DNA of 64,000 nucleotides from Prorocentrum cordatum. Lineage: Eukaryota. The stretch spans positions 186,001-250,000 of the forward strand of contig CAUYUJ010000092.1 of NCBI GenBank assembly GCA_963575745.1, read 5' to 3'. The notes below the pieces were generated by a model. That model made no database searches. It saw only the letters and a list, made by a program, of their open reading frames with translations, and was not told the DNA's origin. The position numbers were made by a program, and so were the translations under genes. This document shows positions 27,137 to 55,301 of this stretch, piece after piece; the stretch's first letter is position 1; every line of letters starts with the position of its first letter.

Positions 27137-32593
<5,457 letters not shown>

Positions 32594-35940: not shown

Positions 35941-36724
35941 GATATCTCTGTCTCTCGCTCGCTCTCTTCCTCTTCTCCCCAAGCAGCATAAGGAATTGGG
36001 CCCGTCCACGGCCCCCTCCCGTCCTTCGCTGCCCCATGTGTCCAAACAGCAGGGCCGTCCGCGGCCCCGGCGGCCCCGTTCCCGCCTGTCGCTGCCGCCC
36101 CGTTTCCCCCCTCCCGTGGCACTGCAGTCGCATTGCGTTGCGCTGCAGTCGTTTTGCATTGCATTTCAGTCGCAGTGCATAGCGTTGCACCGCATTGCTG
36201 TAGGTCGTATCACATCACGTTGCATTTCTTTGCAGTGATTTGCGCCACGTAGACTGCGCCACATGGATTGCGCCACCTAGATTGCACCACATTGATTGCA
36301 CCACCTAGACTGCACCGCAGTGGCGTCAAGGAATCATTGGTTGGGTCCACGCAGGCTACATCTGTCTCTCTCTCTCTCTCGGTCTCTCTCGTTCTCTCTC
36401 TTTCTCTCTCTCTCCCTCTCTGTTGTTGATGACGTGTGTTGTCAAGTTCGGCGTCCAGAGGCCATTTTCGAGGCCGTGGGCCAGAATAAAGACGCCCCGG
36501 GTGCAAAATGACCCCCCGGGCGGGGGCCACAGCTCTGGTGGACCTCGTCGCGAAGAGATCACGCCGCCAAAAATCAGGGCGTCCACGCGTGTGCTCAATC
36601 ACTTGTCGTCTGAACCCGCCTGTGACTGCACGAGAGCTCCGCCCGCGTCACTCGCTAGTTCACTCGAGCCCCGAGCCCCTCTCCCCCAAGCACACGGCAC
36701 TGCCCAAAGCTCTGCACGCACGAA

Positions 36725-36909
36725 ATGGGTATTGAAAGAATGGGTACAATGCCCAACAGCGGATCTGGTTCATTTTGAACAGGGCTCGCTGTCCACGCCG
36801 CCGCGGCCTGTGTCCATTCGAGACAGGAGGCCGCCTGCCCAACAGCGGCCGCTGTTGGTTTGGGACAACATTTGCAGTTGGACATTGTACCCATTTTTTC
36901 GGTACCCAT
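36725..36909. mobile_element. MITE-like element with 36-bp TIRs
   Basis: atgggtattgaaagaatgggtacaatgcccaacagc versus the reverse complement of 36874-36909 (atgggtaccgaaaaaatgggtacaatgtccaactgc): 31/36 identical. Confidence 0.7.
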
Positions 36910-38109
36910 GTCGGGCGTCCAAAAAAGCAGGCGGTGCCCGCCGCAGCCGAGGTGCCGACGCGATTGGTACGAAGAACGGATTTCAGCACGTTGATCAGGA
37001 GGGGGGGGGGCCGGGGGAAGAGGGCATCCACTTGCACCGTACCATGCAAATCCTGCGCCTGAGATCCTACGCCAGCGTGGCGCATCCATGGATGATGGGT
37101 TCATGGCTTCATCTTGACAGATTGCCAGCGCAAGCGGATACGTAGCCGGACTCCTCCCGAGGAGGGGGCGCCGAGCGCAGTGAAGGTTCCTCACGCGTGC
37201 GGACCAACGTTTTCTTCGCGACCATTGGTTCCAGCAAAAAGAAGATCCCCTTTCGGAGCGAGCGGGTCGAAGCTCCTTGCCATTCGTTCTGATCCTGCTC
37301 CTGTTGTTCCTCTCTCCTCCCTCCTTCCTCCTCCCACCCTCCTCCTCCCACAGATCGCGATTCTGCTACGACAGATGCCGACTCCCGAATCAAAGCTGCG
37401 CGGAAAAAGTCCGGCCTGCAAGCTCGCGCTCTTCACGAGACAGTTTGCGATTGTGCAGCGGCATTCTCATTCCCGTTCGACATTGTGCTGGCCCTTGGCA
37501 AGTGACAGTTCCGCTGGAGTCACGGGTGCTGTCCATGCACCGCCACGTGCTCAGGATGATTCTTCGACTTCCACGCCGCAGCACCAGATGCGGCATCCCA
37601 GCAGTAGTAACAGAACGACCACCGCATGCGGCTCCACCAGCAGACTAAAGCAGCAACGACGTCACCGCGTTATCGAGCCCATGCTCCCGCACAAACGCCA
37701 CGGGAGCCATGGCAAGCGTGGGTCTGGCTCACGACGGAACAGATTGAATAATATTGTGCCGAACTTGGGTACGAGTCTAACACGGTTGTAACCAATTTGG
37801 GTACGAATCTAATCCGGTTGTAACCAGCACATATTGACAGTTTCAATGGAGCTCTTTTTGGGAAGCGCTGATAATCGGAAGCACCGCACAACGCGAGCAG
37901 CGCCATTATCACAACGAGCGGCACGCATGGCGTGTATAAGTGTGGGAGTGGGGTCGAATAACCCCATGCTGCAGATAATAAGCCCTAAGGGATAATAAAG
38001 TTCTGGGTTTTCGGGGGGATAATAAAAGTTGCCCGCCAGAGCCAGCATAAAGAGATATCAGGAGGAAAAAGCCAAAGATATCTTGAGAACCCTTGGTGTT
38101 TGGTCCTCT

Positions 38110-38270
38110 ATGAGACATCCTCAACAATGATTTTTCTCGGTTGAGGCATCCTCAACGAATTTTTTGTTTCGCTTGAGACATCCTCGAAATATTTGCCTGT
38201 TTCGCTGGAGACATCTTCAAATTATTGCTTATTTCGCTTGAGACATCCTTGAAATCATTGCTTGTTTCGA
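38110..38270. repeat. 32-bp repeat array (left terminal, ~5 units)
   Basis: Core GTTTCGCTTGAGACATCCTCGA plus a ~10-nt variable linker. Confidence 0.9.
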
Positions 38271-38286
38271 AAAAAAACTACTAAGG

Positions 38287-38691
38287 CTAGGGCGCACCCT
38301 CGAGCGCCCACTTGCGCTGGAGCCGCTCGGAGAGCGCCTCTACAACAGGCTCGGGCTCAAGCTTCGGGCGCTTGCCGCTGCCGTCCTCGGGCTCGTCGTC
38401 CTCGGGCTCCTCGTCCTCTGGTTGCGGTGCGGACTTGCGGCGCTTGGCGTTCTGCCAGGCTCGCTTCTCCTCGTTGTCACTGCTGCGAGGGATCTCCTCC
38501 AGCTCCTTGGTGCGCTTCTGGCTCTTGACGTCCTCGAGCGGTTTCTCGTTCCCGCTCCCCTTGGAGTCCTGGAGCGGTTTCTCCTCCTTCTTGGGGTCCT
38601 CGCGCTTCTCGCTCTCCATGGGTGCCTCGAGCGGTAGCTGCGTGTTTATCTCGGGCATATCACCCATGTCGAAGAAGCTCGGCAAAGACAT
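38287..38691 (-). CDS. Accessory gene 5: 134-aa charged, disordered protein with NLS-like AKRRK and KRPK
   Basis: The first in-frame ATG downstream of the SL-like motif is at 38691, with GC3-rich codons. The upstream part of the 193-aa ORF is repeat-array read-through. Confidence 0.65.
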   Translation of the reverse strand: MSLPSFFDMGDMPEINTQLPLEAPMESEKREDPKKEEKPLQDSKGSGNEKPLEDVKSQKRTKELEEIPRSSDNEEKRAWQNAKRRKSAPQPEDEEPEDDEPEDGSGKRPKLEPEPVVEALSERLQRKWALEGAP

Positions 38692-38768
38692 CCTTGATAC
38701 TCGGAGCTGTGGCGCTCTGTCGCGTTGGCTTGGGCCTTGGTTTGTGAAACTTTTGGGAAGCTCTGAAT

Positions 38769-38792
38769 CTTGAGCCACCAAATGGCTACGGA
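38769..38792 (-). promoter_or_regulatory. Genome-encoded dinoflagellate spliced-leader-like motif
   Basis: The minus strand reads TCCGTAGCCATTTGGTGGCTCAAG, which is DinoSL DCCGTAGCCATTTTGGCTCAAG with a 2-nt insertion. It lies 77 nt before the ATG. Confidence 0.85.
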
Positions 38793-38805
38793 GATCAGTC
38801 TTGCT

Positions 38806-39125
38806 TGTTTCGCTTGAGACGTCCTCAAAGAAAGCATTCCTTGTCTCGCTTGAGGCATCCTCGACCAATCTCTCGTTTCGCTTGAGACACCCTCTAAATA
38901 AATGTTTGTTTCGCCTGAGGCATCCTCAAAGAATTGCTGGTTTCGCTTGAGACATCCTCGACATGATTGTCTGCTTCGCTTGAGACCTCCTCGAACTAAG
39001 TGTTGGTTTCGCCTGAGACATCGTCAAATAATTCCTTATTTCGCTTGAGACATCATTCAAGTAAGTGTTTGTCTCGCTTGAGGTGTCCTCGAACAATTGC
39101 TTATTTCGCTTGAGACATCCTCGGA
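38806..39125. repeat. 32-bp repeat array (~10 units) upstream of gene 5
   Basis: Same core motif and orientation as the other arrays. Confidence 0.92.
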
Positions 39126-39196
39126 ATCGCATTGTGTGTTGTTTTGTTTTGCTAGGGTCTCGCGCAGAAGCTCGGAACAGCTGAGACTGCTCGCAG

Positions 39197-41112
39197 TCAA
39201 ATATTCATAACCTTGCTCTCGAACTCCTTGGCTGCCCTCGCAAGGAAACCCTTCTTGCGCACCGCCTCGAAGTGCTCGCCCATGCACGCCCTGCATCCTT
39301 TGGACCCGTCCTTGAGCATCTCGCATGTCTTGCAATCTTTGGCCGCTTGCAGGGTTGCCTCGAGGGTGGCGTGCTTGGGCTCGGTCTCCAGCGGATCCTT
39401 GGCCTTGCTCTTGGCCTTGCCCCTGGGTTTGGCCTTGCCCTTTGCCTTGGCCTGGGCGGCAGCGTTGTCGCTCGCATCTAGCAGCTTCTGGATCCACTCG
39501 TTGCCTCGCGAGTAGATGTCCTTGATGGTGCTCGGAGGCAGGCGGCCTTCGCCGCGGATCTCGCGCAGGGCGCGCTCGAACCACCTCGTCACCCACAGGC
39601 CGCAGGACCACCCGTCAAGTTGAAACCTCGTGTTGCTCGGAGTGGGGCACTCGACCTCAGGGCCCAGGAGCTTGTGGAGGATCCTCGTGGCCGCCTGCTT
39701 GGCGGACTCGGACGGTACCTTGAGGGCGTCTCGGTACTCGATGGCCTTGTTGGCGTGCTCCTTGGTCACCTTGAGGTAGGCGTAGTGCGCTGGGTTCTCG
39801 CTGTGGACGCAAATGAGGATGCGCTTGGCGTTCTCGACTTTTTCGAGGCAGGCCTTCTGCTCGTTCTGGGCCTCGGTCGCGGGCTCGTCGTCGCCTTGGT
39901 CTCCTCGAGCCCAGGTGACAGCGATTGTCGGCTCGATCAGCAGGACATCCTCGGGAACGCCCGCTCGCTCCTCGATCTCGCCTATCAGGGCTCGCACTGT
40001 GCCGAGCTCGAGGGTGCGGTTCTTCTTGACGAATTCGCAATTCGTGATCGCCAGATGCTTGGCGAGCTCGGTGCGCCTGAACATCCTGCACACTCGCCAA
40101 TCTATATTGAGGGGCTTGGCGGGCGTCCACTCCTGCTCGACCACGACCTCCCAGGCTCGAGGGCCGATGGGCCACTGGGGGCGACCTCCCGCTCGGCTTC
40201 CGCTGCCCTTCCGCTCGGCTTCCGCGCGAGCTCCCGCTCGGCTTCCGCGTCAGATTCCGCCCTGCTTCCGCTGGCCCTTCTGCTCGGCTTCCGCCCATGC
40301 CCCATTGCCCTTCGAGCCTGGCTGGAACGGATCTGGAAGATCGCCGCCGTCCCGACCTCGAGCACCCGGAGCTGGCACTCGCCCTCGCAGTCTTTGACGC
40401 GTCAGACGTATTGAACTCTGCCGCGCCTGCCCTCGTGCAAGCACTCCTCGTCGACCCGCGCGATCTTGCCGTGCCAGGGCGAGTCCTTGCAAGGCTCGAG
40501 GCCCCCGTTCTGCTTCTTCTTGTCTGTTGCCGTCTTGTTATGCTTCGCTTTCAGTTTCTGCTTGAGCCCTTTTCTGAGAAGGAGGTCTTCGGCTTGGGGG
40601 CTCGCCCTGTCGGCGTCGCTCTGGCGATGCCTCGACTCTTGCTCTCGAGTGCGTCTCGGCCCTTCTGCTCGCGATTCGCCTTGTTCCACTTGGCCGCCAG
40701 CTTGCCCGCGCGCTGGCCTCGGAACTTGCCCGCCCACTTGTTCTTGCGCTCGCTTCCCTTGCGAAGCCTGACTCGGCCTTCCAGGGCGCGCGGGAACTGG
40801 GTATTCTTGATGCGCTCCTCTGGCGGCTTGAGCATCTCTCGCTGCTCGTCTGCGAGCCCGAGGTCTAGCCCTGCAAGCTCGAGGAGGCAGGGGTTCTCGT
40901 CGTCCGCGTAGCCCCTCGGCAAGTCCTCGACTGCGAAGCACTCGCCGTCTAGCAAGCTCCAGTCGGGCACTGGGGGCACGTTCTCGGGCCAGCTCGCAGC
41001 GGCCTCGAGCTTCCCCCTGGCCAGTCTCGGCTCGATGCCTCTGCCAGCCTCGATGGTGCAGCTCCAGGGTCCGTCGCCCGTCGCGATCTTCAGCTCGTTC
41101 TGCTCGGTCGGC
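39197..41112 (-). pseudogene. Exon 2 of the transposase fusion: basic linker, Ulp1/C48-like cysteine protease and C-terminal CxxC...CxxC; disrupted by two frameshifts and one stop
   Basis: ILICVH..AHYAYLKV, YRDAL and RFQLDGWSCGLWVTRW give the H-D-Q-C order of clan CE/Ulp1 proteases. The tail contains CKTC..GCRAC. Coding-like sequence is stitched from ORFs 40551..40979, 40402..41259 (3' part), 40102..40365 and 39197..40144. Confidence 0.75.
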
Positions 41113-41257
41113 CTCGCCGCGACTCGCCCCCCTCCTCATCCTTGGCCTCCTCCTCCTTGCCCTCTCCCTCCCCCCCCCCCCCCCCCCCCCCCACCCCCAC
41201 CCCCCCCTCTTCCGGGCGCCGCGGGGCGAGGGGGGGGGGAGATATAAGGTTATATAC

Positions 41258-41316
<59 letters not shown>

Positions 41317-41329
41317 AAAAAAAAAAAAA

Positions 41330-41392
<63 letters not shown>

Positions 41393-41402
41393 AAAAAAAC
41401 CT

Positions 41403-41494
<92 letters not shown>

Positions 41495-41599
41495 TATGAT
41501 CAAACAAAATCCAAAGAACACGCATACATATAAAGGAAAAGAAGAAGAGCAGGGGGAGCAGGAGGAGGAGAGAGGAGCGGAGAAGGAAGAAGCGAAAAC

Positions 41600-42842
41600 C
41601 CAAAGTTCAAAACTAATTAGATTTAATTTGTAAACGATTAATGAAAATTAAGATTTTCATCTGGTCGTGTAGGGTAGCTCATGCGCTTAGTTTTCCCAGG
41701 AACGCGTCGGCTTTTTACATTTTTATCGCGCAGAACTGAAGCTCGGAGGTGCGCGCGCGCGTGCGCCTCTGAGCTTCACTTCTATATTATTCACCATTAA
41801 TAAATCTATGTCAAAAACGAAATCGAAAATTTCTCTGAAGGAACGCGTCTTTTTTTGTATTTTTTAATGCAGAACTGAAGCTCGGAAGCGCGCGCGCGCC
41901 GTGGCCGGGCCACCCGCGCGCGCGCGCGGGCGGCCCGGTCACCGCGCGCGAGCTTCAGCTCTGTATTATAAAAATATTGAAAAGCCGACACGTTCTTCAG
42001 CCTCCGTAAAGGGCCCCAGAAATTTTCGATTTCGTTTTTGGCATGGAATGTAGATTTATGAATGGTGAATAATATAGAAGCGAAGCTTGGTGGAGCGCCG
42101 CCGCGCGCGCGGCGGCGCGCCTCCGAGCTTCAATTCTACATTTGATAAATACAAAAAGATTCAAATGGTTTCTACAGAATTTTGCGCGCATTCCTGTAAT
42201 TCTTATAGGTCCCCTAAGATTCCGACTGGTTTCCATAGAGATTCCTATTGGTTTCTTCAGAGATTCCCCATGTGCCTCGTTTTCCCAGGATATTCAACCA
42301 CAGCGATAAACAAGTTCAGGGGGGCAGGGGGAGGAGAAGAAATATATAAAGATAAATAGAAATATAGAAAGAGAAGAGGAGGTAGAGGAGGAAGAGGAGG
42401 AGGAGGAGAAACAGCGAGAGGAGGAGAGGAGAAGGAGATAGCAACAATCCAAAGTTTAAAACTTATTACATTTAATTTGTAAACGCCTAATGAAAATTAA
42501 AATTTCCATCTGCTCATGTAGGGTAGCTCATGTGCTTAGTTTCCCCAGGATGATCAACCCCAGCGATGAGCAAGTTCAGGGGGGCGGGGAGACAGGAAGA
42601 AAAAGAAGTAGAAAGAGAGAGATAGAGAAATAAGAAAAGAAACATGGGAATAATGAGAAGGAGGAAGAGCACGAGAAGCAGAGGAAGAGGAAGAAGCAAA
42701 CATCCAAAGTTCAAAACTTACTAGATTTAATTTGTAAGCGCTTCGTAAACATTAAAATTTCCATCTCTTCGTGCAAGGTAGCTCATGCGCTTAGTTTTCC
42801 CAGGATAACCAACCCCAGCGACGAACAAGTTCAGGGCGCCAG
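41600..42842. repeat. ~135-bp AT-rich dispersed module (copies ~41600, ~42279 partial, ~42449, ~42704; also ~49330, ~49572)
   Basis: caaagttcaaaact.attagatttaatttgtaa...gtagctcatg(c/t)gcttagttttcccagga...aacaagttcaggg recurs, separated by purine-rich tracts. Confidence 0.88.
41700..42160. other. Nested multi-hairpin/foldback element
   Basis: Three GC-cored hairpins with GAAGCT...AGCTTC stems (~41731-41783, 41869-41963, 42075-42139). 41700-41727 is inverted at 41968-41995, and 41772-41834 is inverted at 42018-42087. Confidence 0.8.
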
Positions 42843-43714
42843 GAGGGGGGGAGGAGAAAGAGATAGAGAAATATATAGAGATATATAGATAGGGGAGAGA
42901 GAGAGAGAGAGAGAGAAAAAATGAAGAAAGAAATAAAGAAAGAAAGAGAGAGAGAGAGAGAAAAAAAAAGGAAAACGTGAGAGAGGAAGAAGAGGAGGGA
43001 GAGAGAATAAGGAGGAGGAGGAGGAGGACGAGCAGGAAGAGGAGAGAAGGTAGGGGAGCAGGAGGCAGAGGAGGGGGAGGGGAAGGGGCAGGATGAGAAG
43101 GAGGAGAAGGAGGAAAAGAAAGGAGGAGCAGGAGGAGGTGGAACAGAACAGGATTCCTCAAGCACTGCTTGTTTCGCTTGAGACATCCTTGAACAAACGC
43201 CTGATTCGCTTGGGACATCCTCGAACGAATGCTTGAGGTCGTCTTGGAAGCTTTCTCGGAGATCCTCCTGGGATTCTCTTGAATTCGTTGAAGATCCAAG
43301 CTCCAGGCTCGAGATCCCCCTCCTCCTCCTCCTCCTCGACCCCCTCCTCCTCCTCCTCTTCTTCCTCTTCTTCCTCTTCCTCCTCCTCCCCCCTCCTCCC
43401 TCCTCCCTGCTCCCTCCTCCCTCATCCCTCTTCCCTCCCGCCTCCCTCTCCTCCTCCTCCTCATCCTCCCCCTCCTCCTCCTCCTCCTCCTTATCCTCCT
43501 CCCGCCCGCCGCCTCGCTGCGAGCATCTGGTTCGCTTGAGACATCCTTGAACAAACGCCTGATTCGCCTGAGACATCCTCGAACGAATGCTTGAGGTCGT
43601 CTTGGAAGCTTTCTCGGAGATCCTCTTGAGATTCTCTTGGAATCGTTGAAGATCCAAGCTCCAGGCTCGAGATCCTCCTCCTCCTCCTCCTCCTCCTCCT
43701 CCTCCTTGACCTCC

Positions 43715-43746
<32 letters not shown>

Positions 43747-43946
43747 CTCCTCCCCCCTCCTCCCTCCTCCCGCCCCCTCCTCCCTCCTCCCCCTCCCTCC
43801 CCCCCACCCCTCCTCCCTCTCCTCCTCCTCCTCCTCCTCCTCCTCCCCTCTCCTCCTCCTCCTCCTCCTCCTCCTCCTCCTCCTCCTCCTCCTCCTCCTC
43901 CTCCTCCTCCTCCCTCCTCCTCCTCCCTCCTCCTCCCTCCTCCTCC

Positions 43947-43977
<31 letters not shown>

Positions 43978-44101
43978 TCCTCCTCCCCCTCCTCCTCCTC
44001 TCCTCCCCTCCTCCTCCTCCTCCTCCTCCTCCTCCTCCTCCTCCCCTCCTCCTCCCTCCCCCCATCCTCCTCCCCCTCCTCCTCCTCTTCCCTCCCACCG
44101 C

Positions 44102-46236
44102 CTCGCTGCGAGCATCTGGTTCGCTTGCATGCCTTGGAGCGGCACGGCCTCCTTGTTCCCCTCGCGGAAGCGCTTGTAGGCCTCGGGGATGCAGTAGATG
44201 CACTCGTAGGGCCCCCAGCTGCTCGGGTACCTGTAGTCTTTGGTGGGGTCGGCCTTGGCCCCCTGGAACCACTCCTGCTCGACCGCCCAGTGGATCTGGC
44301 TCTTGACCTTGCGGATCGCCGCCTTGAGCTGGCTGTGCTCGCGGGCGTCGGGTTCTTGGAGGAAGCTCGCCACGTCTGGGGCCGTCGGCGCGTAGACGAT
44401 GTTCTTGAGCCAAGCTCGGAGCGTCGCGCTCTCGGTCCACTGGCTCGACAGGCAATCTGCGAAGACGAGGGCTTGGCCGTGCTCTTGCTCGATGAAGTCA
44501 ATGGTCCAACTTGCAATGAGCTCGTCCGTCCAGGCTCCCGGCTGGCCCCAGATGCCGATCTGCTCGAAGATCTCGGCGCGCTCCTCGGGGTCGAACTCGA
44601 GGAGGGCTTGGCGCCAACCCTTCATGATCGTGCCGATGTTCTCGCCTGCTCGGAAGACCTCGGCCTCGCCGTCGCTCCGCTCGTAGCGGACGTCTCGGAG
44701 CCAGGTGCCGCTCTCGAGGTTCATGTCGGAGATCTTGCAGTGCCTCGCGCACGGGACTGGGGGCACGCTGCGCTTCTTGGCCGACCTCGGCCCCCGGCTC
44801 GGGTCGAACCACCCCTCGACGCCCGAGATGTTGATGAGCGTGAGCCTGTACTTGTCGCCCGCGCTCGAGTATGCTTGGTCTACTTGCTGCTTCTTGTCGC
44901 CTTGCTCACCGTAGAACTTCTCTCGCTCGGCCCCCCAAGCTGCCCTGTCTGTCTCGGCCTGCGTCTCGCGGAACTTGCGGCGGAGCTTCTGGATCCGGGC
45001 CTTGTGGCTTGCGCCCTGGAGCTCGGACTCGTGGAGGTAGACTTTCTCCTCGCCTCGGAGCTTGAGCCAGAGCGCGGTCGCGTCGACGACGACCACGCTC
45101 GCGTCTCGCCTGCGCTCGGCGAAGGCCTCGGCGTCTTCGACGAAGAGGCTGAGCTCCTCGGCGCTGCCCCTCGCCACGAGGTGCTGGAACCTGTCGGCAG
45201 TGGCCCAGGTCAGCTTGGCCTTGCTCTCGGAGAGGGTCTTGTTCATCTGTTCCGAGAGGCGCTGGCCCTTGTGCCCTGACGCGCGCAGCCTCGGGAGCAC
45301 GACTTCGTTGATCCACTTCGAGTCCTTGCGGGCCAAGTTGTTGATCTTGAAGGTCGCGAGCCGCTGGGTGATTCTCTTGAGAATCTCGGCGTTGTACCAG
45401 GGGTGGCTCGTGTTCTTGAGATGGAGCTGCTTGTCCTTCTCCCACTCGAGCTCGTACTTGAGCCTGGTCAAGATCGTCTTGTGGCGAACTTCGTGGCCGT
45501 ACATGTGTCCCCGCTTGAACCAGATCTCGAGTCGGCCCACGACTCCCTCGAGGGGGCGCTTGGGGCACGCCAGGCCAGGAGTGAAGTTGTGCACTCTCGC
45601 GCCCTGGCTCTTGTTTGCCTTTGCCTGATGCGGCCGGACTCGGCCGCAGGCTCGGATGCCGTTCTTGCCGAGCCTCGCCACGGCGACCAGCTTCTCGAGA
45701 GACGCCCCCTTCTTGTTCCAGTTCTTGACTGCCTCGTAGGGCCAGCGCCACTTCTCGGTGAGCTGAGTCTTGACGCCGACTGGGGGCTGGGAAAAGTCCG
45801 CGAGCTCGTGCTTGTCGGCCTGCTTGCACCAGCCGAGTACGATCTGGAGCTTGCACTGCGCGGGCGGGTCTCGGCGCAGGGTGGGAGCTGCTCGGGGCTT
45901 GTGCGTCCCGCGGTACTTGCGACTCGAACCCTGGGGTCTGCCGCCCCTCTTCGGCCCCCGAGCGACGCCTCGGCCGCTGTCGTCGGGGCCGAGCACCTTC
46001 CCCTCGGTGCTCGCCTTCGCTCGGCGCTCAGCAGCGGCTGCGAGGCGCTCCTGCTCGGTCGTCTCCGCCTCGAGCCTCTTCGCCTCGAGCTCCTGGAAGA
46101 ACATCGCCTTTGCCTCGGGGGACAGGTAAGGCGAGCTCCTGAGCTTCTTGTGGGAGCTCGGGGATTCCACCGGACTCGAGCTTGCAAGTCCACATAAGCT
46201 TGACAGGCTCGACTGCCGCTTGATCGGCGCGCCCAT
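44102..46236 (-). CDS. Exon 1: pogo/Tc5-like (DDE_1 family) DDD transposase
   Basis: Putative triad VVVDATALW ... VFADCLSSQ ... ASFLQEPD, with 35 residues between D2 and D3 (DD35D). CENP-B/Tc5 HTH-like LEIWFKRGHMYGHEV. The frame is open for ~711 codons; the rest of the 1169-aa ORF is microsatellite. Confidence 0.8.
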
Positions 46237-46302
46237 GTCGACTGGCTCTTGACTGGCGCGCTCGAGAGGCGAAACTTCTGCGCGAGTGGCGTGCTCGAAA
46301 GG

Positions 46303-46325
46303 CTTGGGGCAAGAACGGATACGGA
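46303..46325 (-). promoter_or_regulatory. Degenerate SL-like motif upstream of the transposase
   Basis: The minus strand reads TCCGTATCCGTTCTTGCCCCAAG followed by CCTTTCGAG, 66 nt before ATG 46236. Confidence 0.55.
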
Positions 46326-46438
46326 TGTTGTCCTTGCGGAGCTGCTGCTGCCTGAGACCTCGAATACGTGCCTGTATCGTTTGAGAGCTGTTGCTGTTGT
46401 TCGCTTGAGACGCCCTCGAATAAGAAAAGGAAGGGAAG

Positions 46439-46670
46439 CTAGGGTAGGCCTAGGGTAGACCTAGGGTAGGCCTAGGGGTAGGCCCTAGGGGTAGGCCTAG
46501 GGGTAGGCCTAGGGGTAGGCTCTAAGGGTAGGCTCTAAGGGTAGGCCTAGGGTAGGCCTAGGGATGGGCCTAGGCGTGTAGGCCTAGGCCCATCCCTAGG
46601 CTTACACGCCTAGGCCTACCCATTCCTTTTCTTGTCTCGCCATCCCTAGGCCTACACGCCTAGGCCTAGG
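46439..46670. repeat. CCTAGG/TAGGGTAGGCC satellite (inverted counterpart at 48885-49184)
   Basis: Direct reading. Confidence 0.9.
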
Positions 46671-46910
46671 TACGTCCTCGAGTAAGTTCTTGTTTCGCCT
46701 GAGACATCCTCGAACGAATCTCTCGTTTCGCTTGAGACATCCTCGGCAAATCTCTCATCTCGCTGGAGACATCCTCGAGCAATTGCCTGTTTCGCTTGAC
46801 ACATCCTCGAAAAACATATCTCGTTTCGCTTGAGACAGCTTCGACAACTCTCTCGCTTTGCTTGAGACGCCCTCGAGTATATGCTTGTTTCGCTTGAGAC
46901 ATCCTCGAGG
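46670..46910. repeat. 32-bp repeat array (~7-8 units)
   Basis: Same core motif. Confidence 0.92.
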
Positions 46911-47022
46911 GTTCTCTTGGGGTTCTCTTGAATTCATCGAGTGGGAGCCTCGATACTGGGCCGCTCGACATTTTTCTTCGCGTCCAGCCTCGGTTAGCTC
47001 GCAAGAGTAGCGCCTCGGCCAT

Positions 47023-47373
47023 CTAGAGTGGCTCACTCGAATCAACCCTGGGTTCTCTCGACTGAAGCTCGTCGTCCTGGAACTGCGTGGGCTCGCCTGG
47101 CTGGAGCTGCTCGGCTGTCTTGCCGCGCACGAGAGAGGCCCTCCACTTGTTCTCTTGGGTGGGGTCGAGCTCGGTCTCGACCTCCGTCTCGGTCTCCGCC
47201 CTCTGCTGCTTGACGTCGGTCTTGACCGCAGTCTCGATCTTGAGCTCCGTCTCGATCTTCACGGTTGTCGGCTTGGACTTCCTCGAGTTCTGCGTTGTTT
47301 TTTTCGCGACAGAAGGCTTGGGCTCCCTCGGCGCCTGCGCTGGCTTCTTGGAGACAGTCGCCCGCTTGGCCAT
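47023..47373 (-). CDS. Accessory gene 3: 116-aa protein with a basic N-terminus and tandem psi-K-x-E/D motifs
   Basis: ATG 47373 (MAKRATVSKKPA) follows an SL-like motif; the protein contains VKIE, LKIE and VKTD. Confidence 0.6.
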   Translation of the reverse strand: MAKRATVSKKPAQAPREPKPSVAKKTTQNSRKSKPTTVKIETELKIETAVKTDVKQQRAETETEVETELDPTQENKWRASLVRGKTAEQLQPGEPTQFQDDELQSREPRVDSSEPL

Positions 47374-47425
47374 GTCGCCTGCAGCGCGCCCGCTCCAGGT
47401 GCGTTCCTCGCTCGTGCTCGAAATC

Positions 47426-47448
47426 CTTGAGCCAGAGTGAACTACTGG
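47426..47448 (-). promoter_or_regulatory. Degenerate SL-like motif
   Basis: The minus strand reads CCAGTAGTTCACTCTGGCTCAAG then GATTTCGAG, 52 nt before the ATG. Confidence 0.6.
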
Positions 47449-47449
47449 A

Positions 47450-47820
47450 AGAGACATCCTCGAAAGCACTCTCGCTTCGCTTGAGACATCCTCGACGAAT
47501 CACTTCTCTCTCTCTTGCCAGATCTTCGAAATTATGTGTTACTTCGCTTGAGAGATCCTCGGCACATAGCTTGTTTCGCTTGAGACGTCCTCGACATACT
47601 TGTTTGTTCCGCTTGAGACTCCTCAGGCAATTGATGCGTTTGCTTGAAACATCCTTGAAATAATTTGATGTTTCGCTTGGGACATCCTCAAACAATTGCT
47701 TGTATCGTTTGAAACGTCCTCGCATGCGTGCTCGTTTTGCTTGAAATATCATCGAACAAATGTTTATTCCGATTGAGACATCCTCTGCAACTCTGTCGCT
47801 TCGCTTGAAACGCCCTCGAG
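47450..47820. repeat. 32-bp repeat array (~11 units) upstream of gene 3
   Basis: Same core motif. Confidence 0.92.
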
Positions 47821-47883
47821 CCATTTTCGACGCACGATAGGGAAATCTTCCTTGTTTGCTCGAAGCACTCCGAGCGCACGCAT

Positions 47884-48670
47884 CTAACTCGAGCGCCCTT
47901 CGAGTATCCACTGGCTGTGCGTGCGCTCGTAGGGCGCCCTGGCTTGCGCCTCGGCGTCTGAGGCTGGCTCGGTCGCCCCAGCGTCGGGGCCCGAGAACAC
48001 TGCGTAAACCTCGGGTTCCTCTACTAGGCGCTTGCCCTCCTCGGGCACGAGCTCCTGGCGCTCGGCGCCCTCGTCGTCAAGCTCGTCGGTATCGCTCTCG
48101 GGCTGCTCTGGTGTTTCGGGCTCTCGAGACCTCGGGCTCCCGACCTCGTCCTCGGACTCCGCGGGCGTCTCGAATTCGTCTCGGTCTCGTCATCGCTTCT
48201 TCTCGCCGCTGCTGATGACGGCCTGGGGCTCCTTCTCGCGGGCCTCGATTTCCTCGGGCGTCTCGGGTTCCTCGAGCTCTTGGCGCTTGGTGCCCTCGTC
48301 GTCAAGCTCGTCGGTCTCGCCCTCGGGCTTCTGGTGTCTCGGGCTCTCGAGACCTCGGGCTCTCGGCCTCGTTGTTCGGGAGCTGGGCGTTCTCCTCGAG
48401 CGCCTCCTGCTCCTCGAGACACTGCGCGTTCTCGGGCGGTCCTGTGAGCCCGAGCTCTTGCCGCATTGCCTCGAACATGTCTTGGGCGTTCCCGAACGTC
48501 GCGAGGCTCTCCTCGGAGAAGATGTCTCGCCAATCGCTCGGGAGACGAGCAGCCATGTCCTCGGGAAAGATGCCTCGCCAACGGCTGCGGGGGCGGTCAG
48601 CCATTGATCTCGGCGATGTCGATCGAGACCCTTGCCTCTGAGATTGCCCGAACTCGATGCGCTGTTCCAT
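47884..48670 (-). pseudogene. Accessory gene 2: acidic protein with an internal repeat; one frameshift (~48330) and one internal stop (48190-48192)
   Basis: ORF 48302..48670 continues into the frame of 48190..48834 and through TGA to the stop at 47884. SPRSREPETPE.PE..TDELDDEG..RQEL occurs twice. Confidence 0.6.
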
Positions 48671-48707
48671 TGTCGCCTTGGAGCAAATATCTTGGATAGC
48701 TCGAAAT

Positions 48708-48729
48708 CTTGAGCCACCAAATGGCTACG
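48708..48729 (-). promoter_or_regulatory. Genome-encoded SL-like motif (same GG-insertion variant as 38769)
   Basis: The minus strand reads CGTAGCCATTTGGTGGCTCAAG then ATTTCGAG, 37 nt before ATG 48670. About three 32-bp repeats lie immediately upstream (48745-48830). Confidence 0.85.
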
Positions 48730-48884
48730 TATATTTCTGCTGCTCGTTTCGCTTGAGACGTCTTCGAAGAACGTGTTTGTTTCGTTTGGATGGTCCTCGA
48801 CGAGCGTGCTCGTTTCGCTCGAAGCCTCCTCCAACCTTTACTAGTATCGCTGGAGGGGCCCTTTGAGGCCTTTCCCATGCTACC

Positions 48885-49184
48885 ATAGGGCCTACCTCTA
48901 GGCCCGCCCTAGGCCCACCCCTAGGGCCTACCCCTGGGGCTACCCCAGGCCTACCCCTAGGGCGTGCCCCTAGGCCTACCTTAGAGGGCATGCCTCTAGA
49001 GCCTACCCCTAGGGCCTACCCCCACGCCTACCCCTAGAGCCTAAAATTAGGCCTACACCCCATAGGTCTACCCCTAAGCCTACCTCTAGGCCTACCCCTA
49101 GAGCCTTCCCCTAGGCCTACCCTAGGCCTACCCCTAGGGTATCCCTAGGCCTACCCTAGGCCTGCCCATAGGGCCTTCAGTAGG
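48885..49184. repeat. GGCCTACCCCTA satellite (reverse complement of the 46439-46670 motif)
   Basis: Direct reading. Confidence 0.9.
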
Positions 49185-49743
49185 GCGCCAGGGGTGAGGA
49201 GAATAAATGTTGATAGTTAAATAGACAGATAGGAAGAGAAGAAGAGGAAGAGGAGGCAGGGGAGGAAGAGGAGGAAGAGGATAAGGAGGAGGAGAAAGAG
49301 CAAGAGGAGGAAAAAGAGAAGCAAAACACCAAAGTTCAAAACGCATTAGATTTAAATTACAAGCGCTTAATGAAAATTGCAAGTTTAGCTCATGTGCTTA
49401 GTTTTCCCCGGGTAATCAACCCCTGCGATAAACAAGTTCAGGGTGGCAGGGAGACAAGAAGAAAAAGAAATAGAAAGAGAGAGAGAGAGATACATAAATA
49501 AGACACGAAAGAACCGAAGGATGAGAAGGAGGAAGAGCAGGGGAAGCAGAGGAAGAAGAATATGCAAAAATCCAAAGTTCAAAACTTATTAGATTTAATT
49601 TGTAAGCGCTTAATGGAAATTAAAATGTTCATCTGCTCGCGTAGGGTAGCTCATGCGCTTAGTTTTCCCAGGATAATCAACCCCAGCGATAAACAAGTTC
49701 AGGGCGCCAGGGGGAGGAGGAGAAAGAATGAGAGAGAGATAGG

Positions 49744-49785
<42 letters not shown>

Positions 49786-49989
49786 TATATATAGAGAGAG
49801 AGAGAGAGACAGAGAGAAAGAGAGAGAGAGACAGAGAAAGAGAGAGAGAGAGAGAAAGCAATAACAAAAAAAAAAGAGAAAGAGAAAGAGAAAGAGAGAG
49901 AGAGAGAGAGACAGGACGAGGGAGGAGGGAGGAGGAGGGAGGAGGAGCAGGAGGAGGAGGCCCATGACAGGATTCCTTAAGCACTGCTT

Positions 49990-50409
49990 GTTTCGCTTGA
50001 GACGTCCTTGCGAATTTGGTTGCTTCGCTTCAGGCATCCTTGAAAACATGCTTGCTTCACTTGAGACATCCTTGGACAAACGCTTGATTCGCTTGAGGCA
50101 TCTCGAAAGAATGCTTGGGGTCCTCTTGGGGCCCTTCTCGGGTATTCCCTTGGCGTGTCCTTGGTCGAGGGTCCAAGCTCGAGGCTCCAGGCCCGAGATC
50201 TCAGCTCGAAGCCCAGTGGGCCTCGAGAGCGTCGAGGTTCGAGGCTTGCCTCGACGCTCGTCGCCGCCACCGGAGGGAGGAGAGGCGGCGACGGCACCGG
50301 CGACGGCAGATGCGACGACGGCGACGACGACGACGACGACGGCGGCAGCGACGACGGCGTCGTCGTCGTCGTCGCCGTCGCCGCCGCCACCGCCTTCATC
50401 CTGCCTCCG

Positions 50410-50449
<40 letters not shown>

Positions 50450-50740
50450 CCTCCTCCTCTTCCTCCTCCTCCTCCTCCTCCGCCTCCTGCTCCTCCTGCT
50501 GCCCCCCTCCCTCCCCTCCCTCTCCCCCCCCATCTCCCCTCTCACATCCCCGAGCAATTTCTTGTTTCGCTTGAGGCGTCCTCGAGCAAATCTCTCGTTT
50601 CGCTTGAGACATCCTCGACAAATCTCTCGCTTTGCTTGAGACATCCTCGAGTATTCGCTTGTTTCGCTTGAGACGCCCTCGACGAGCCTCTCGCTTCGCT
50701 TGCGACATCCTCGAGCAATTCTTTGTTTCGCTTGAGACTC
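49990..50740. repeat. 32-bp repeat arrays (~4 and ~6 units) separated by microsatellites
   Basis: Same core motif. The start acaggattcct.aagcactgcttgtttcgcttgagac is duplicated at ~43148. Confidence 0.88.
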
Positions 50741-50769
50741 CCTCTCCTCCCTCCCCCCTCCGTCCTCGG

Positions 50770-51067
50770 TCGACCCTCGGGTCGAGAGTCCAAGGTTCTC
50801 GGGCCAGGGATCCGAGATCTCGTGATCTCGGATCAACGATGGCCCGAGGCTCTCGGAGCCTCGATCCGAAGATCGATCGAGGATCGAGCCTCGCCGAAGG
50901 GATCTAAGACGAGATGACCTTGAGACAGGGGCTCGATCCTCGATCGACCCTCGGATCGAGAGCCCAAGGTTCTCGGGCCAGGGATCCGAGATTTTGTGAT
51001 CTCGGACCAACGATGGCCCGAGGCTCTCGGAGCCTCGATCCGAAGATCGATCGAGGATCGAGCCTCG
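50770..51067. repeat. TCGA/GATC-rich duplication with 174-bp period, 3' of gene 1
   Basis: tcgaccctcgg...gatcgagcctcg starts at 50770 and 50944. Confidence 0.85.
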
Positions 51068-51211
51068 ACGGAGTTGCGCTCGGTGTTACGCTCGAGAAGG
51101 GGCTGGCGAAGCCTCTCGGGAAACCTCTCGGAAAGCTCGAGGGAACGGGCCTTGATCGCCACTCGCTCCTCGATGAGGCCTCGATGAAACCTCGCGCTGG
51201 GCCTGCTCGGC

Positions 51212-52279
51212 TCAAACCTCCATCTCGATCTTCTCGAACTCCTGCTTGCTCGTCTTCTCGACCTTCATCTCCTCGTACTCATTGTTGGTCTTCGCGTAGC
51301 TCGGGAAGCTAGTCTTGATGAACACATCGAAGAGCATATTCTGATGCTCGAGCTTCTTCTTCTCCTCGATGTCCTCGTCGCGCTTGAGGCGCTTGGCGGC
51401 GGTGTACTTGTGCACGTCGAGCTCGAAAGCCTTCTTGGCCACCTTGCTGACTTGCCAGCGCCGCGCCACGATGGCGCTCGTGGCGCAGATGCGCTCGCTT
51501 GCGTCACCCTCGAGGCAAAACCGCTTGAACTCGTCGAAGTAGTCCTTGGCCTTCTTGGGCATGATTGCTACCGACTCGAACTGCTCCTTGCCCTTCTTGG
51601 CGCTGGCCCTCGGCAAGACAGACTTGAATTGCTTGTTCACTGGAAGCATCACCACGTACAGCGCTTGCAGATCTTGGGGGGTCTCGCCGAGGACCTGCTT
51701 GACGACCTTGGTCGCGGCTCTCTCGGGCATCATCTCGGCCTTGTCGCCGAGGAGCGCGTCGTGCGTTTTGGCCTCGTCGAGCAACTCCGCTCGGAAGCTC
51801 GGCAGCATCCTGAACAACTTCTCGACGTTCGTGTCCTGGTCGTCGAAGCCGTCGAACATCTCGGTGCTCCCCTCGATGTGCGTCTTGTAAAAGATCGCAC
51901 AGAGCAGCTCGCCGCGCCGCTTGTCCTTGCCGTGGAAGATGCCCTCGTACTGGATGCCCTCGAGGCTCCCCGTCTTGAGGGCGCTCGCGAGGGCGGCGTT
52001 CTTGCTGTTCTTGTGCCACAGCGCGGAGCCGCCCCGGCAGTAAAAGTTCGCCATTCTCGAAGCGTCGGTAGCCTCGCCGCTCGATTGGCACTGCCTCATC
52101 TCGGCGCAGCCTGCCTTCTCGGCGATGTACTCGAGTGTCTTGTTCTGCACCTCGATGGCCTCGTTCTGCTTCTCGAGCAGCTTGGACATCTGCTCCAAAA
52201 CCTGGTTGTTTTGCTTGAGCAGCTCGATGACTTGGCTGTCCTCCGCGAGCTGGGGGCTCGACGCCTTGGGCGACGCCAT
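51212..52279 (-). CDS. Accessory gene 1: intact 355-aa protein of unknown function (N-terminal coiled coil, globular core)
   Basis: ATG 52279 (MASPKASSP) follows an SL-like motif. Heptad-like LLKQNNQVLEQMSKLLEKQNEAIEVQNKTLE and strong GC3 bias. The upstream part of the 540-aa ORF is repeat array. Confidence 0.8.
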   Translation of the reverse strand: MASPKASSPQLAEDSQVIELLKQNNQVLEQMSKLLEKQNEAIEVQNKTLEYIAEKAGCAEMRQCQSSGEATDASRMANFYCRGGSALWHKNSKNAALASALKTGSLEGIQYEGIFHGKDKRRGELLCAIFYKTHIEGSTEMFDGFDDQDTNVEKLFRMLPSFRAELLDEAKTHDALLGDKAEMMPERAATKVVKQVLGETPQDLQALYVVMLPVNKQFKSVLPRASAKKGKEQFESVAIMPKKAKDYFDEFKRFCLEGDASERICATSAIVARRWQVSKVAKKAFELDVHKYTAAKRLKRDEDIEEKKKLEHQNMLFDVFIKTSFPSYAKTNNEYEEMKVEKTSKQEFEKIEMEV

Positions 52280-52338
52280 GGCTCGGGAAGCTGAATCTCG
52301 AAAGCTTCGAAAGCTCGAAAGCTCGAAATCTCGAAGCG

Positions 52339-52359
52339 CTCGAGCCAGAACGGTTGCGG
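52339..52359 (-). promoter_or_regulatory. SL-like motif
   Basis: The minus strand reads CCGCAACCGTTCTGGCTCGAG: 16/21 identical to DinoSL, with all differences transitions. It is followed by tandem TTTCGA(G) copies. Confidence 0.7.
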
Positions 52360-52380
52360 GCGGGAGCAGGAGACTAGCTC

Positions 52381-53035
52381 GTTTCGCTGGATACATCCTC
52401 GAAAACGTGCTCGTTTCGCTTGAAACATCCTCGAACAAATCTCTCGTCTCGCTTGAGACATCTTCGACAAATCTTTCATTTCGCTGGAGACATCCTCGAG
52501 CAATTGCTTGTTTCGCTTGAGACACCCTCGAACAAAATTTGTCGTTTCGCTTGAGACGTCCTCGACAAATTTCTCCTTTCGCGTGACAAATCCTCGAGTA
52601 TATGCTTGTGTCGCTTGAGACATCCTTAAGAAACGTATTGTGTCGCTTGAGACGTCCTTCAGTGTATGCAAGTTTCGCTGGAGACATCCTCGAATGTATG
52701 CCTGTTTCGCTTGAGACATCCTCGACAACGTGCTCGCTTCGCTGGATACATTGTCGAAAACGTGCTCGTTTCGCTGGAGACATCCTCGAACAAATCTCTC
52801 GTTTCGTTTGAAACATCCTCGACAAATCTCTCATTTCGCTTGAGACATCCTCGAGTATATGCTTGTTTCGCTTGAGACATCCTCGACAAGTTATCGCCTC
52901 GTTTGAGACATCCTCAAATATTTGCTGGTTCCGCTTGAGACATCCTTGAAATATTGATCGTTTGGTTTCAGGTTGCCTCCCAAAATTATTGGTTTCGCTT
53001 GAGACATCCTGAAAAAACGTGTTCGCTTCGCTTGA
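52381..53035. repeat. Largest 32-bp repeat array (~20 units), at the right end of the element
   Basis: A 22-bp conserved core plus a 10-11-nt semi-variable linker; period 32-33. Confidence 0.95.
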
Positions 53036-53604
53036 TGTTGTTATCTCAACATGAGAAGGAAGTAACCTCGATGGCGAACTTTTCCCGTGATAATGAAGTT
53101 CGGCCTCCGCGCCCCCGCGCCCCCGACCAAACTCTTATTGGCCGACGATAAAAAACTCTAACTACTTAAGGGGGGATGGACATTATTATCGTGGGCATGC
53201 GGTTATGTTGCCTCCTCAAGGGGCGCTTACTGGCCAAATCTGCAGCAATCGGGTCGAGGGGGCCGAGGAGGACACATTATAGAACCCGGCACGTTTGGCA
53301 ACCAGCCCATCCACGAAGACGAAATGTCAATCAGGAATTTGATCGTAGAGTCGTGTTTCGTCATTCGCCTGCCGTTGCTCGGACGCGGCGGCTAATTACG
53401 AGCATGAGGACGACGACGAGGACGAGGACGGCAACGACGACGACGACGTCGTTTGGGCGCCGCAGCGGCGAGGGCGAGGGCGAGGACGAGGACGGCGACG
53501 AAGACGACGACGAATGGCGTCGACGACGACGTTGACAAGGACGACCAGGACGAGGACGGCGACGACGACTGTGAAGACGATGACGATTCGAGGAACAAGC
53601 AACG

Positions 53605-53768
53605 GCATAAACACAAATGTTTGAAGCTGCGCTGATTTCTTGGATCGGTGCCGGACCCCCCTTCCCTGGCGTGTGGAGCGCGCCAGGGGCGGCGCCAGAG
53701 GCGCCACTAGGGTGCTCCAGCGCCAATCTGAGAAATCCGCGCGGACCTCCGAAAATGTCATGCTTATG
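53605..53768. mobile_element. Palindromic MITE-like element, copy 3 (core inverted relative to copies 1-2)
   Basis: gatttcttggatc...gaaatccgcgcggacctccga arms, with core tggagcgcgccaggggcggcgcc. Confidence 0.65.
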
Positions 53769-55301
53769 AAGTTGTTTGTTCCCCGAGTCATTCCATTTTG
53801 GTCGCAAGCACGCTTATGGAGACCATTGCCGAGGACCAGGCCTCAAGACGTCATGAGGGCGTGTGCAGGAATGGTTTCAGCATGTTGGGTAAGCTTCTGT
53901 ACGACAGCGGCACGTTGGACATGCTTCGGCTATGCGTGCAGAGCGCGCATCTTCTAGTGACCAGCTGGCCTGGTATCTGGAAAGGCACGCAACGCAAAGT
54001 CTCTCCGCGCCTGGAAAGATAGCTGAAAGGCAAATGTAGAGGGTAATAAGGGGGGGCGAGATTTCTCTTGGTGATTGCTGTGCCCGTCCGATCACGCTCG
54101 GAAGTGGCAGGGGGTGCTAGATCACTTTCTTCTCGCGGCGGGAACCGCAGAATCTCCCGGGAGTTTGCGAAAAGATAGATCGAAGCCCTCCTTGAGACAG
54201 GTGCGCGCCACGGCGGTCGGGCGCGACGCCGCCAGGGGCCGCCTCGCTGGAGCCTACTCGGCAACCGTGCTGGAGCGGCTGGGCATCGCAGGGCCGCGCA
54301 GGCCGAAGACTCCTCCACCTCCTCCTCCTCCTCCTCCTCCTCCTCCTCCTCCTCCTCCTCCTCCTCCTCCCTCCTCCTCCTCCTCCTCCTCCTCCTCCTC
54401 CTCCTCCTCCTCCTCCTCCTCCTCCTCCCTCCCTCCCTGGGGCGCCCGCCCCCCCAGCCCCCGCCGCACGCGACGGGCGACGTCGGCGGTGGGGGGGGGC
54501 CCCTTCCACGGCGGGTCCGATGCGGGGGTTCCTCCATGACCACCGCCTGGGGGATCGATCTTCGGGGGCCTCGGCTGGCGGAGGGTGCGATCGCATTCGA
54601 GCTCTGGGAGGGCCAAGTATATCCACATCCACCGCCCGCCCGGGAGGTCCACGAAGATCGATCCCCCGCCAGAGGGTATGGAGAAGTCCCCGCCTCGCAG
54701 CCAAGCACCCTAGCGAGGGCGAGCGGGTGTGTCAGAGCCCCGAATCATCAGGAGTAACTCGGGTCAGGGCTAGCGGGCGATTTGGGGGGCAGGAAAATTT
54801 TGGGGCTGGCCTTATTCGTGGCCTCTGGGCTTCCTGGCCTTCGGGCTTCCATGCGTCCCGCGGCCTGGCTACCCCAGGAGGGGTGCGGCGGAGTGCGTTC
54901 GCCCTCTCAGCCTTTGGCCGCTTAGCGGTGGCGGATTTCGGCGTGGGGCTGCCACGCTGTCTGCTCTCCTTCCTCCTTCTTTCTGCTGTCTGGTGAGGTT
55001 GGCTGATTGGATTCCGTCGCGTGGCGGCCCCTGGGCACGCCACTGGCCGCGCGCGGCCATTGCCACAGCGAGCGCGGAGGCATTTGCGGGGGTTACGCGC
55101 ATGCCCCGCTGGGCTCGCTGTGCAGCTTGCGGGCCCTGCAGTATGGTGACGCCACCAGTCTGTGCCGATCTGGATGCATTGGGCCCTGGAGGAGTTCCAG
55201 TTCGGGCCAGCCTGGCGGTGCCGGTTCTTTTTCGCATGCCCACAGTTGGTGCGAGAGCGCCGCCCTACTCTGGCATGTTGGTACAGCCCAACAATATTTT
55301 C

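Follow-up and report, generated by a model that had tools for sequence, protein, structure and literature searches.

In a 64,000-nucleotide stretch of DNA from Prorocentrum cordatum (contig CAUYUJ010000092.1, positions 186,001 to 250,000 of the forward strand; hereafter the window, to whose own numbering all coordinates refer), a block at 38110-53035 carries five different genes on the minus strand, each of which stands behind a relic of the dinoflagellate spliced leader (SL) and copies of one 32-bp repeat. This order of repeat array, encoded SL and open reading frame (ORF), which an initial annotation of the window had described, is real and non-random. With about even confidence, we read the block as a one-directional cluster of relict-SL gene copies in a Prorocentrum-like dinoflagellate nuclear genome, grown by local duplication and recombination of a shared module. 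Dinoflagellates have very large genomes with a wealth of duplicated genes that lack an explanation, and next to nothing is known of their promoters or of the signals by which their mRNAs are processed. The block is a compact candidate both for a cis-acting sequence behind transcription or transcript processing and for the way in which retrocopied genes assemble into one-directional clusters.

The canonical leader, DinoSL, is DCCGTAGCCATTTTGGCTCAAG, as given in a passage of an earlier study (PMC7245778). At up to five edits, eight matches to it occur in the window, compared with an average of 2.2 (0 to 4) over 12 block shuffles, and five of the eight lie on the minus strand 37-77 nt before the five ATGs, just as had been proposed. 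Motifs 2 (48708-48732, CGTAGCCATTTGGTGGCTCAAG, 37 nt before ATG 48670) and 5 (38769-38794, TCCGTAGCCATTTGGTGGCTCAAG, 77 nt before ATG 38691) are the canonical SL with an identical 2-nt GG insertion (CCATTTGGTGGCTCAAG). The other three are worn and match the canonical SL at 16-17 of 21 positions: motif 1 (52339-52359, 16/21, followed by (TTTCGAGC)n) stands 59 nt before ATG 52279, motif 3 (47426-47448) 52 nt before ATG 47373, and motif 4 (46303-46324) 66 nt before ATG 46236. Passages of three papers treat an encoded DinoSL as the mark of a gene copy derived from a trans-spliced mRNA (PMC7245778, PMC12014239, PMC9651163), and the feature that defines such relict-DinoSL retrogenes, a relic on the same strand just upstream of the gene, is found here in five cases. 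We also considered SL RNA genes. The dinucleotides directly after motifs 1-5 are CG, AT, GA, CC and AT; since no motif is followed by GT, they are not SL-RNA donor genes, and an Rfam scan of the window gave no hits.

Homology between the cassettes extends beyond the leader itself. Just after the SL stands (A/C)TTTCGAGC in four cassettes and ATTCAGAGC in the fifth, while TTTCGAG|N lies directly after four of the five relict SLs, with ATTCAGAG in the remaining one. Between cassettes 2 and 5, identity is about 85% over the stretch that begins with the last repeat unit, crosses the SL and reaches some 25 nt into the 5' untranslated region (UTR); both have GCGACA further into the UTR, after which the similarity ends. 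The proteins of these two cassettes have no detectable relatedness. A common descent of genes 2, 3 and 5 as diverged paralogues was rejected, the alignment scores being weakly above those of composition-matched shuffles, 12-33 of 500 of which reach them. The leader module, comprising the last unit, the SL and the start of the 5'UTR, is truly common to unrelated ORFs. Because the array, SL and first part of the 5'UTR are homologous across unrelated ORFs, the block points to growth at the DNA level, and neither to five independent events nor to arrival by cut-and-paste.

In the 32-bp unit, 22 bases are conserved (TCGAGGATGTCTCAAGCGAAAC, read on the coding strand) and the roughly 10 after them vary, as seen in 63 units. 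That it is seen only at 38.1-53.0 kb of the window and in one orientation was confirmed by core scans and shuffles. A 19-nt core at up to three mismatches gives 56 matches, all in one orientation and all at 38135-53011, where 100 shuffles predict 0.00; a 20-nt core at up to five substitutions gives 68 minus-strand and no plus-strand matches, of which 66 fall at 38134-53011 and the two outlying ones (57810 and 9445) carry five mismatches each. The motif TTTCGAG|N is present in every unit, and all 12 minus-strand TTTCGAG sites of the window lie inside the block. The variable parts belong to a few types, which make up a three-unit higher-order repeat of 96-98 bp that recurs in four arrays; in addition, 46671-46905, in array A6, is 85.6% identical over 236 bp to 52392-52626, a part of array A1. 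This identity and the common higher-order repeat indicate that the arrays are copies of one another.

Eleven arrays were counted, all on the minus strand. Five of them precede an SL and an ORF, which bears out in part the earlier statement that arrays precede genes: A1 upstream of gene 1 (52377-53035, about 20 units; Tandem Repeats Finder period 32, 19.9 copies), A4 upstream of gene 2 (48741-48831, about 2.8 units), A5 upstream of gene 3 (47451-47825, about 10 units), one or two degenerate units directly before the SL of gene 4 (46398-46420), and A8 upstream of gene 5 (38801-39127, 10 units, beginning about 70 nt past the gene 4 stop). The others lack this sequel. They include A2 (50544-50744, 6 units), A3 (49985-50117, 4 units), which opens a composite repeat block homologous to one in gene 4, two short arrays at 43529-43580 and 43171-43222, and the terminal array A9 (38111-38269, 4-5 units), 17 nt past the gene 5 stop. 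A6 (46675-46908) has 7 units. Two further ideas about the unit were rejected. Folding of four 98-nt repeat stretches was no better than that of shuffles (z -0.9 to +0.5), which speaks against a hairpin or attC-like fold, and a decayed SL as the origin of the unit fails because CTCAAG alone is in common, with 5 of 16 upstream positions matching, the level of chance; this origin survives as speculation only.

The junctions between units and cassettes invite another explanation, in which a pre-existing 32-bp satellite was a preferred landing site for reverse-transcribed SL-mRNAs and several independent retrocopies settled at unit boundaries in one orientation, so that the block would outwardly resemble a cassette array in a eukaryote. 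Units do flank every cassette on both sides in phase-consistent orientation, the SL of cassettes 2 and 5 begins where the next unit core would, and in four of the five cassettes the array that follows takes up again at, or close to, the beginning of a unit. Moreover, TCGAGGATGTCTC is found on both sides of cassette 3 and CGAAACAAGCAA on both sides of cassette 5. We nevertheless consider such serial capture improbable. The identical GG insertion in leaders 2 and 5 and the homology of their UTRs imply that a leader was copied and not acquired by independent SL addition; the 3' junctions lack poly(A) tails, and a Pfam scan of 43 window ORFs showed no reverse transcriptase or integrase. In a periodic array, a "duplicated" flank is indistinguishable from a deletion, and the argument from phase is a post hoc one based on five cases.

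A cluster of relict-SL gene copies would have started from retrocopied genes, each with an encoded 22-nt DinoSL relict left by mRNA recycling or retroposition, and would then have grown by local DNA-level duplication and by unequal or microhomology recombination of the module of array, SL and leader. The lineage-specific 32-bp minisatellite arrays would be its present intergenic spacers. For P. minimum/cordatum, published passages, among them some of PMC12014239, describe numerous retrogenes of this kind, a largely one-directional gene order and a share of 64.8% for dispersed duplicates, and the TTTT box in DinoSL has been proposed as a promoter in passages of two papers (PMC12014239, PMC9651163). 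In the window, the cluster is probably transcribed in one direction, and the T-rich boxes of the arrays and of the relict SLs may act as weak promoter elements. TTTCGAG|N could be a pyrimidine-AG acceptor for fresh SL trans-splicing, so that each ORF would give its own capped mRNA. Segmental duplication would further have carried parts of the cluster, genes 1 and 2 at the least, to a second locus.

The genes themselves differ in state. All five minus-strand ORFs have a coding-type GC content at third codon positions (GC3, 0.76-0.90), and genes 1, 3 and 5 are uninterrupted, whereas two of the five, genes 2 and 4, are decaying. Gene 1 (51212-52279; P0001, 355 amino acids (aa), GC3 0.90) is intact. 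Of its 12 relatives at E<=1e-3, four are P. cordatum proteins and the others come from short contigs; identity to the P. cordatum relatives is 49-55% over the full length and 75% for the partial protein P0168, and one cluster of relatives holds 18 near-identical members on contigs of 0.9-2.1 kb. The family has no Pfam or PDB match, and its ESM atlas score of 0.76 is uninformative. Judged by its relatives, gene 1 is a member of a conserved dinoflagellate family to which Pfam and PDB assign no function. In its 3' region (50763-51067) there is a 131-bp tandem duplicate, 95% identical, and this stretch is also partly self-complementary. Gene 3 (47023-47373; P0004, 116 aa, GC3 0.83) is small and charged, and gene 5 (38287-38691; P0005, 134 aa, GC3 0.86) is small and acidic and ends in T8 directly before a unit.

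Gene 2 (47886-48670) is broken: by comparison with its closest relative, P0168, it has a 1-nt loss and frameshift near 48330 as well as an in-frame TGA at 48190-48192. P0168 (P. cordatum, 331 aa) aligns through residues 1-146 to the end of gene 1 with 75% identity, and through residues 147-223 and 223-331 to gene 2 in two different frames with 86-88% identity. Since this protein joins gene-1-like and gene-2-like parts, the pair is adjacent and in the same order at a second locus.

Gene 4 required a new gene model. It was mapped with four full-length relatives (P0010 of 1210 aa, P0012, P0021 and P0007), which fall on four segments in three frames, 45975-44104, 41123-40554, 40713-40357 and 40150-39248. 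The annotated ORF of 1169 aa is real to about residue 710, and its tail is a read-through of low-complexity repeats; the end given at 42727 is therefore replaced by coding parts at 46236-44104 and 41123-39197. Part 1 (44104-46236) would encode an N-terminal region and a DDE_1-like core, and parts 2-4 (39197-41123, in three frames) a linker, a CE-clan/Ulp1-like protease motif and a Cys-rich tail. Between them lies a 2.98-kb repeat block (41124-44103, minus strand) that contains Gly/Glu-type simple repeats, repeats of 255 bp and 2+2 copies of the 32-bp unit; its two bounds are marked by GC(A/G)GCGAGGC, a direct repeat of 10 bp. Within it, a unit is fused via a common CAAGCGAAC to a second copy of about the last 40 nt of gene 4 part 1; units of the array recombine with coding DNA. 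In view of its contents, the bounding repeat and this hybrid junction, we take the block to be a scar left by recombination or insertion and not a clean intron, a GC...AG intron being the possible alternative. A composite block with one and the same succession of units, Gly/Glu-type simple repeats, CT-rich tract and 255-bp tandem repeats is found in two places, 41124-44103 and 49200-50541; between genes 1 and 2, the CT-rich tract and 255-bp repeats at 49258-49960 (minus strand) are 78% identical over about 700 bp to 42375-43080.

The domain content of gene 4, which had been labelled pogo-like, emerges from several faint signals. Hidden Markov model searches with the five ORFs against Pfam, a check suggested earlier, gave nothing meaningful, and no Pfam domain was found in the gene 4 protein of the window, in 20 relatives or in 30 members of the family alignment (the sets overlap). 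In the ESM atlas, residues 330-715 hit DDE_1 clusters in 25 of 30 cases (top score 0.95, 193 common features). PF03184 matched two of 67 further relatives below threshold (E 0.0015 and 0.011; 18.6 and 15.8 bits at a cut-off of 22) over a stretch corresponding to about window residues 567-644, and was the sole family matched twice among them. Candidate catalytic residues, read from the sequence, are D385, D594 and D630. The motif layout, DATALW ... GDKYRLTLINISG ... ADC ... 36 residues ... LQEPD, fits what we take to be pogo signatures. Besides these signals, the resemblance to pogo/Tigger (DDE_1, PF03184) comprises the D..D..D arrangement, the 36 residues between the last two acidic residues and a K-x-R-L-T-L-I strand motif; the differences are that no terminal inverted repeats (TIRs) or TA duplications were found and that gene 4 is SL-tagged, carries a putative C-terminal protease and stays below the Pfam threshold. 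Together these signals weakly suggest that the core is pogo/DDE_1-like, as the label has it; the window protein itself gave no Pfam match.

For the 3' part, the family profile against PDB finds XopD (E=0.013) and ChlaDub2 (E=0.036), whose H, D, Q and C residues align with it (aHY/W..DS..Q.DGwsCG), and PF02902 appears in one of 30 family members with a weak E of 0.21. The C-terminal part of gene 4 in the window reads HYAYL...YRD...QLDGWSCG, an H..D..Q-x5-C motif, and is followed by the Cys-rich tail CKTC...GCRACMGEHFE. By this weak profile match, the 3' part of gene 4 is a candidate CE-clan (Ulp1-like) protease.

In a protein cluster search that covered 1.84 billion representatives, the gene 4 family comprised 484 clusters at E<=1e-3, 244 at 1e-10 and 52 at 1e-30, and a profile search with the family alignment returned family members only, none of them with a Pfam domain. 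Gene 4 itself would be a worn copy of this widespread dinoflagellate family, in which a pogo/DDE_1-like core is apparently combined with an Ulp1-like protease and a Cys-rich tail. Nine metagenome contigs of 1.1-4.7 kb encode relatives, and none of the nine has the 32-bp core or relatives of genes 1, 2, 3 or 5. Two contigs, L002 and L004, carry the whole protein of about 1200 aa uninterrupted in a single frame. L002 has a perfect DinoSL 84 nt from the contig start, and the coding match to P0010 follows about 320 nt further on. On L004, two SL-like copies with three mismatches each stand in tandem, and about 520 nt upstream of this pair lies the C-terminal end of another gene-4-type copy, head to tail; because its start and end overlap (gene C-terminus and 57-bp repeats), a unit of about 4.4 kb was tandem or circular in the source. 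The ends of L004 (1-130 and 4520-4749) and the start of L008 resemble remnants of sequencing adapters. Both L002 and L004 have their own 57-65-bp tandem repeats, in three copies, right after the stop codon. On L009 the order is simple repeat, SL-like motif, chimeric ORF, simple repeat and SL-like motif; the small chimeric ORF (209-855), behind a worn SL, has the transposase motifs LQEPDTHEHSQIK and DKYRITLIN in reversed order and is, by these motifs, a scrambled derivative of the gene 4 family. The family thus seems to multiply as SL-tagged cDNA-type or tandem copies, which for a DNA-transposase gene would be an unusual life cycle.

These data bear on the initial annotation's main proposal, a cargo-bearing transposon of about 15 kb, and on its wider form, in which the block or a sub-block moves whole, driven by the pogo-like/Ulp1-like protein or another enzyme, with the 32-bp arrays as internal or terminal repeats and genes 1, 2, 3 and 5 as cargo or accessory genes. 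Several observations speak for it, namely the DDE_1-like reading of gene 4, the multi-copy state of both the gene 4 and gene 1 families, the gene 1-gene 2 pair at a second locus, the confinement of the repeat and SL-tagged ORFs to one block with arrays at both ends, and the concentration of CTCGAG there (53/61 sites). Transposase-Ulp1 fusions are known in Ginger1 and Mutator elements, at least in a portion of the relevant report (PMC2836005). Gene 4 would share with these the combination of a DDE-type enzyme and a C-terminal CE-clan cysteine protease; their cores are integrase-like or of the Mutator-like-element (MULE) type, whereas that of gene 4 looks pogo-like and its protease match is weak.

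The structure of the block nonetheless makes a mobile unit unlikely in our view, and the cut-and-paste transposon of 15 kb finds no support. The flanks have no TIRs: blastn-short of 36000-38300 against 52950-55000 gave only direct unit and low-complexity matches, and every array is direct, none inverted. The transposase-like gene is itself SL-tagged and broken. Its relatives in other contigs stand alone or in self-tandem, one with its own copy upstream, and never beside relatives of genes 1, 2, 3 or 5, while gene 1 relatives are also found as stand-alone gene models and on short single-gene contigs of 1.2-2.1 kb. With only 75-88% identity in protein, the paralogous pair is too diverged for a recent movement.

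That the block is an endogenous viral element, or a repeat region put together wrongly in the assembly, is highly improbable. The distinct composition (CTCGAG at 53/61) and the very repeat-rich character of the region can be counted in its favour, and CE-clan proteases also occur in large DNA viruses. Yet the repeat core, gene 4 and gene 1 have no relatives in 2.9 million viral contigs, Pfam scans of the window ORFs show no capsid, polymerase or packaging gene, and the closest named relatives are dinoflagellate nuclear proteins. As for misassembly, the ORFs run on unbroken over the array junctions, and the sequence has no Ns.

Some of the evidence sits less comfortably with a one-directional cluster of relict-SL gene copies. 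Sharing of the leader beyond the SL is clear only for cassettes 2 and 5, and the promoter and acceptor roles are purely inferred. None of the five cassette 3' ends, where periodic flanks are ambiguous, shows a remnant of poly(A) or a clear duplication of the target site, and no intron-bearing parent genes were identified. Six of the 11 arrays have no SL and ORF after them and are thus not strictly gene-start elements; since repeats also follow gene-4-type stops in L002, L004 and the window, the arrays could be 3' and not 5' features. An SL tag is present in two of the four gene 4 contigs that can be judged (L002 and L004), L001 and L006 having none at up to six mismatches though both cover the N-terminus together with 270 nt or more of the sequence before it. 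Finally, the transposase-like gene, the multi-copy families and the repeated gene 1-gene 2 pair also fit a mobile unit.

Among described systems, relict-DinoSL retrogenes are close in that they have an encoded DinoSL directly upstream of the 5'UTR, mostly uninterrupted ORFs and multi-copy families. Here, in contrast, five different ORFs stand together with a common 32-bp array and part of the UTR, and neither 15-nt relic SLs in tandem nor remnants of poly(A) nor parent genes came to light. The unidirectional single-exon gene arrays of Polarella glacialis, as described in part of PMC7245778, likewise have one orientation, short spacers, relic SLs and few introns, and the head-to-tail gene-4-type copies of L004 resemble them; by that description they repeat one gene, whereas the present block strings unrelated ORFs behind one repeated spacer-leader module. 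The literature searched contained no paper on a DinoSL-tagged transposase family or a layout of array, SL and ORF, none on a dinoflagellate minisatellite with a spliced leader, and none on pogo-Ulp1 fusions in dinoflagellates. Accordingly, neither the minisatellite-plus-leader module on unrelated ORFs nor the large SL-tagged pogo-like/Ulp1-like family was found there.

Integron cassette arrays and trypanosomatid polycistronic units offer analogies only, with unrelated ORFs in one direction, each behind a like short repeated junction element, and with transcripts that SL trans-splicing would resolve. Unlike integron arrays, the window has no tyrosine integrase among its 43 ORFs and no hairpin-forming attC-like sites. 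A bolder proposal is that the oriented array, the SL and a short leader that ends near the ATG form a portable module for expression and assembly, which recombination can join at the CTCAAG / CAAGCGAAC core to any SL-bearing cDNA or coding sequence, so that the lineage would build and copy multi-gene blocks cassette by cassette, possibly with the help of the pogo-like/Ulp1-like protein. We hold this to be quite doubtful. If true, the module would be functionally comparable to integron arrays, and we know of no eukaryotic system described in which multi-gene blocks are assembled cassette by cassette in a manner comparable to integrons. Interest in the block would rise if the module proved to be regularly joined to varied ORFs genome-wide, or if whole-block copies with defined ends were found; should it be merely a local, decaying duplicate region, its value would lie mainly in being an annotated example.

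Other features of the block and its surroundings deserve mention. A 12-bp satellite, (GGCCTACCCCTA)n, at 48889-49176 is inverted relative to 46439-46588, within its partner array at 46439-46618; these inverted arrays (GGGTAGGCCTAG) bracket cassettes 2 and 3 and resemble the foldback-type ends of subrepeats. The density of CTCGAG at 38000-53100, which holds 53 of the 61 window sites, may merely reflect dense CTC-GAG codon use in intron-poor coding DNA. The window as a whole is repeat-laden eukaryotic DNA with a GC content of about 0.58, and ARAGORN found no tRNAs in it. Of 38 further window ORFs scanned against Pfam, a single one had a clear match, an EamA-like transporter outside the block at 7715-8653 on the plus strand (E=9e-15). 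A long tract at 24950-32950 consists of 11/21/32-bp repeats built on GGCCTCTTGGG and includes a 418-bp higher-order repeat at 27441-28613; a (GT)245 microsatellite occupies 29029-29519. Beyond the block, segmental tandem repeats at 55297-56216, 59031-59939 and 63600-63997 are 91-96% identical and spaced 3.7-4.6 kb apart, and each of them holds arrays of the 27-bp unit GCTCCCTGACAGGAGCAGCGCCCCCAA.

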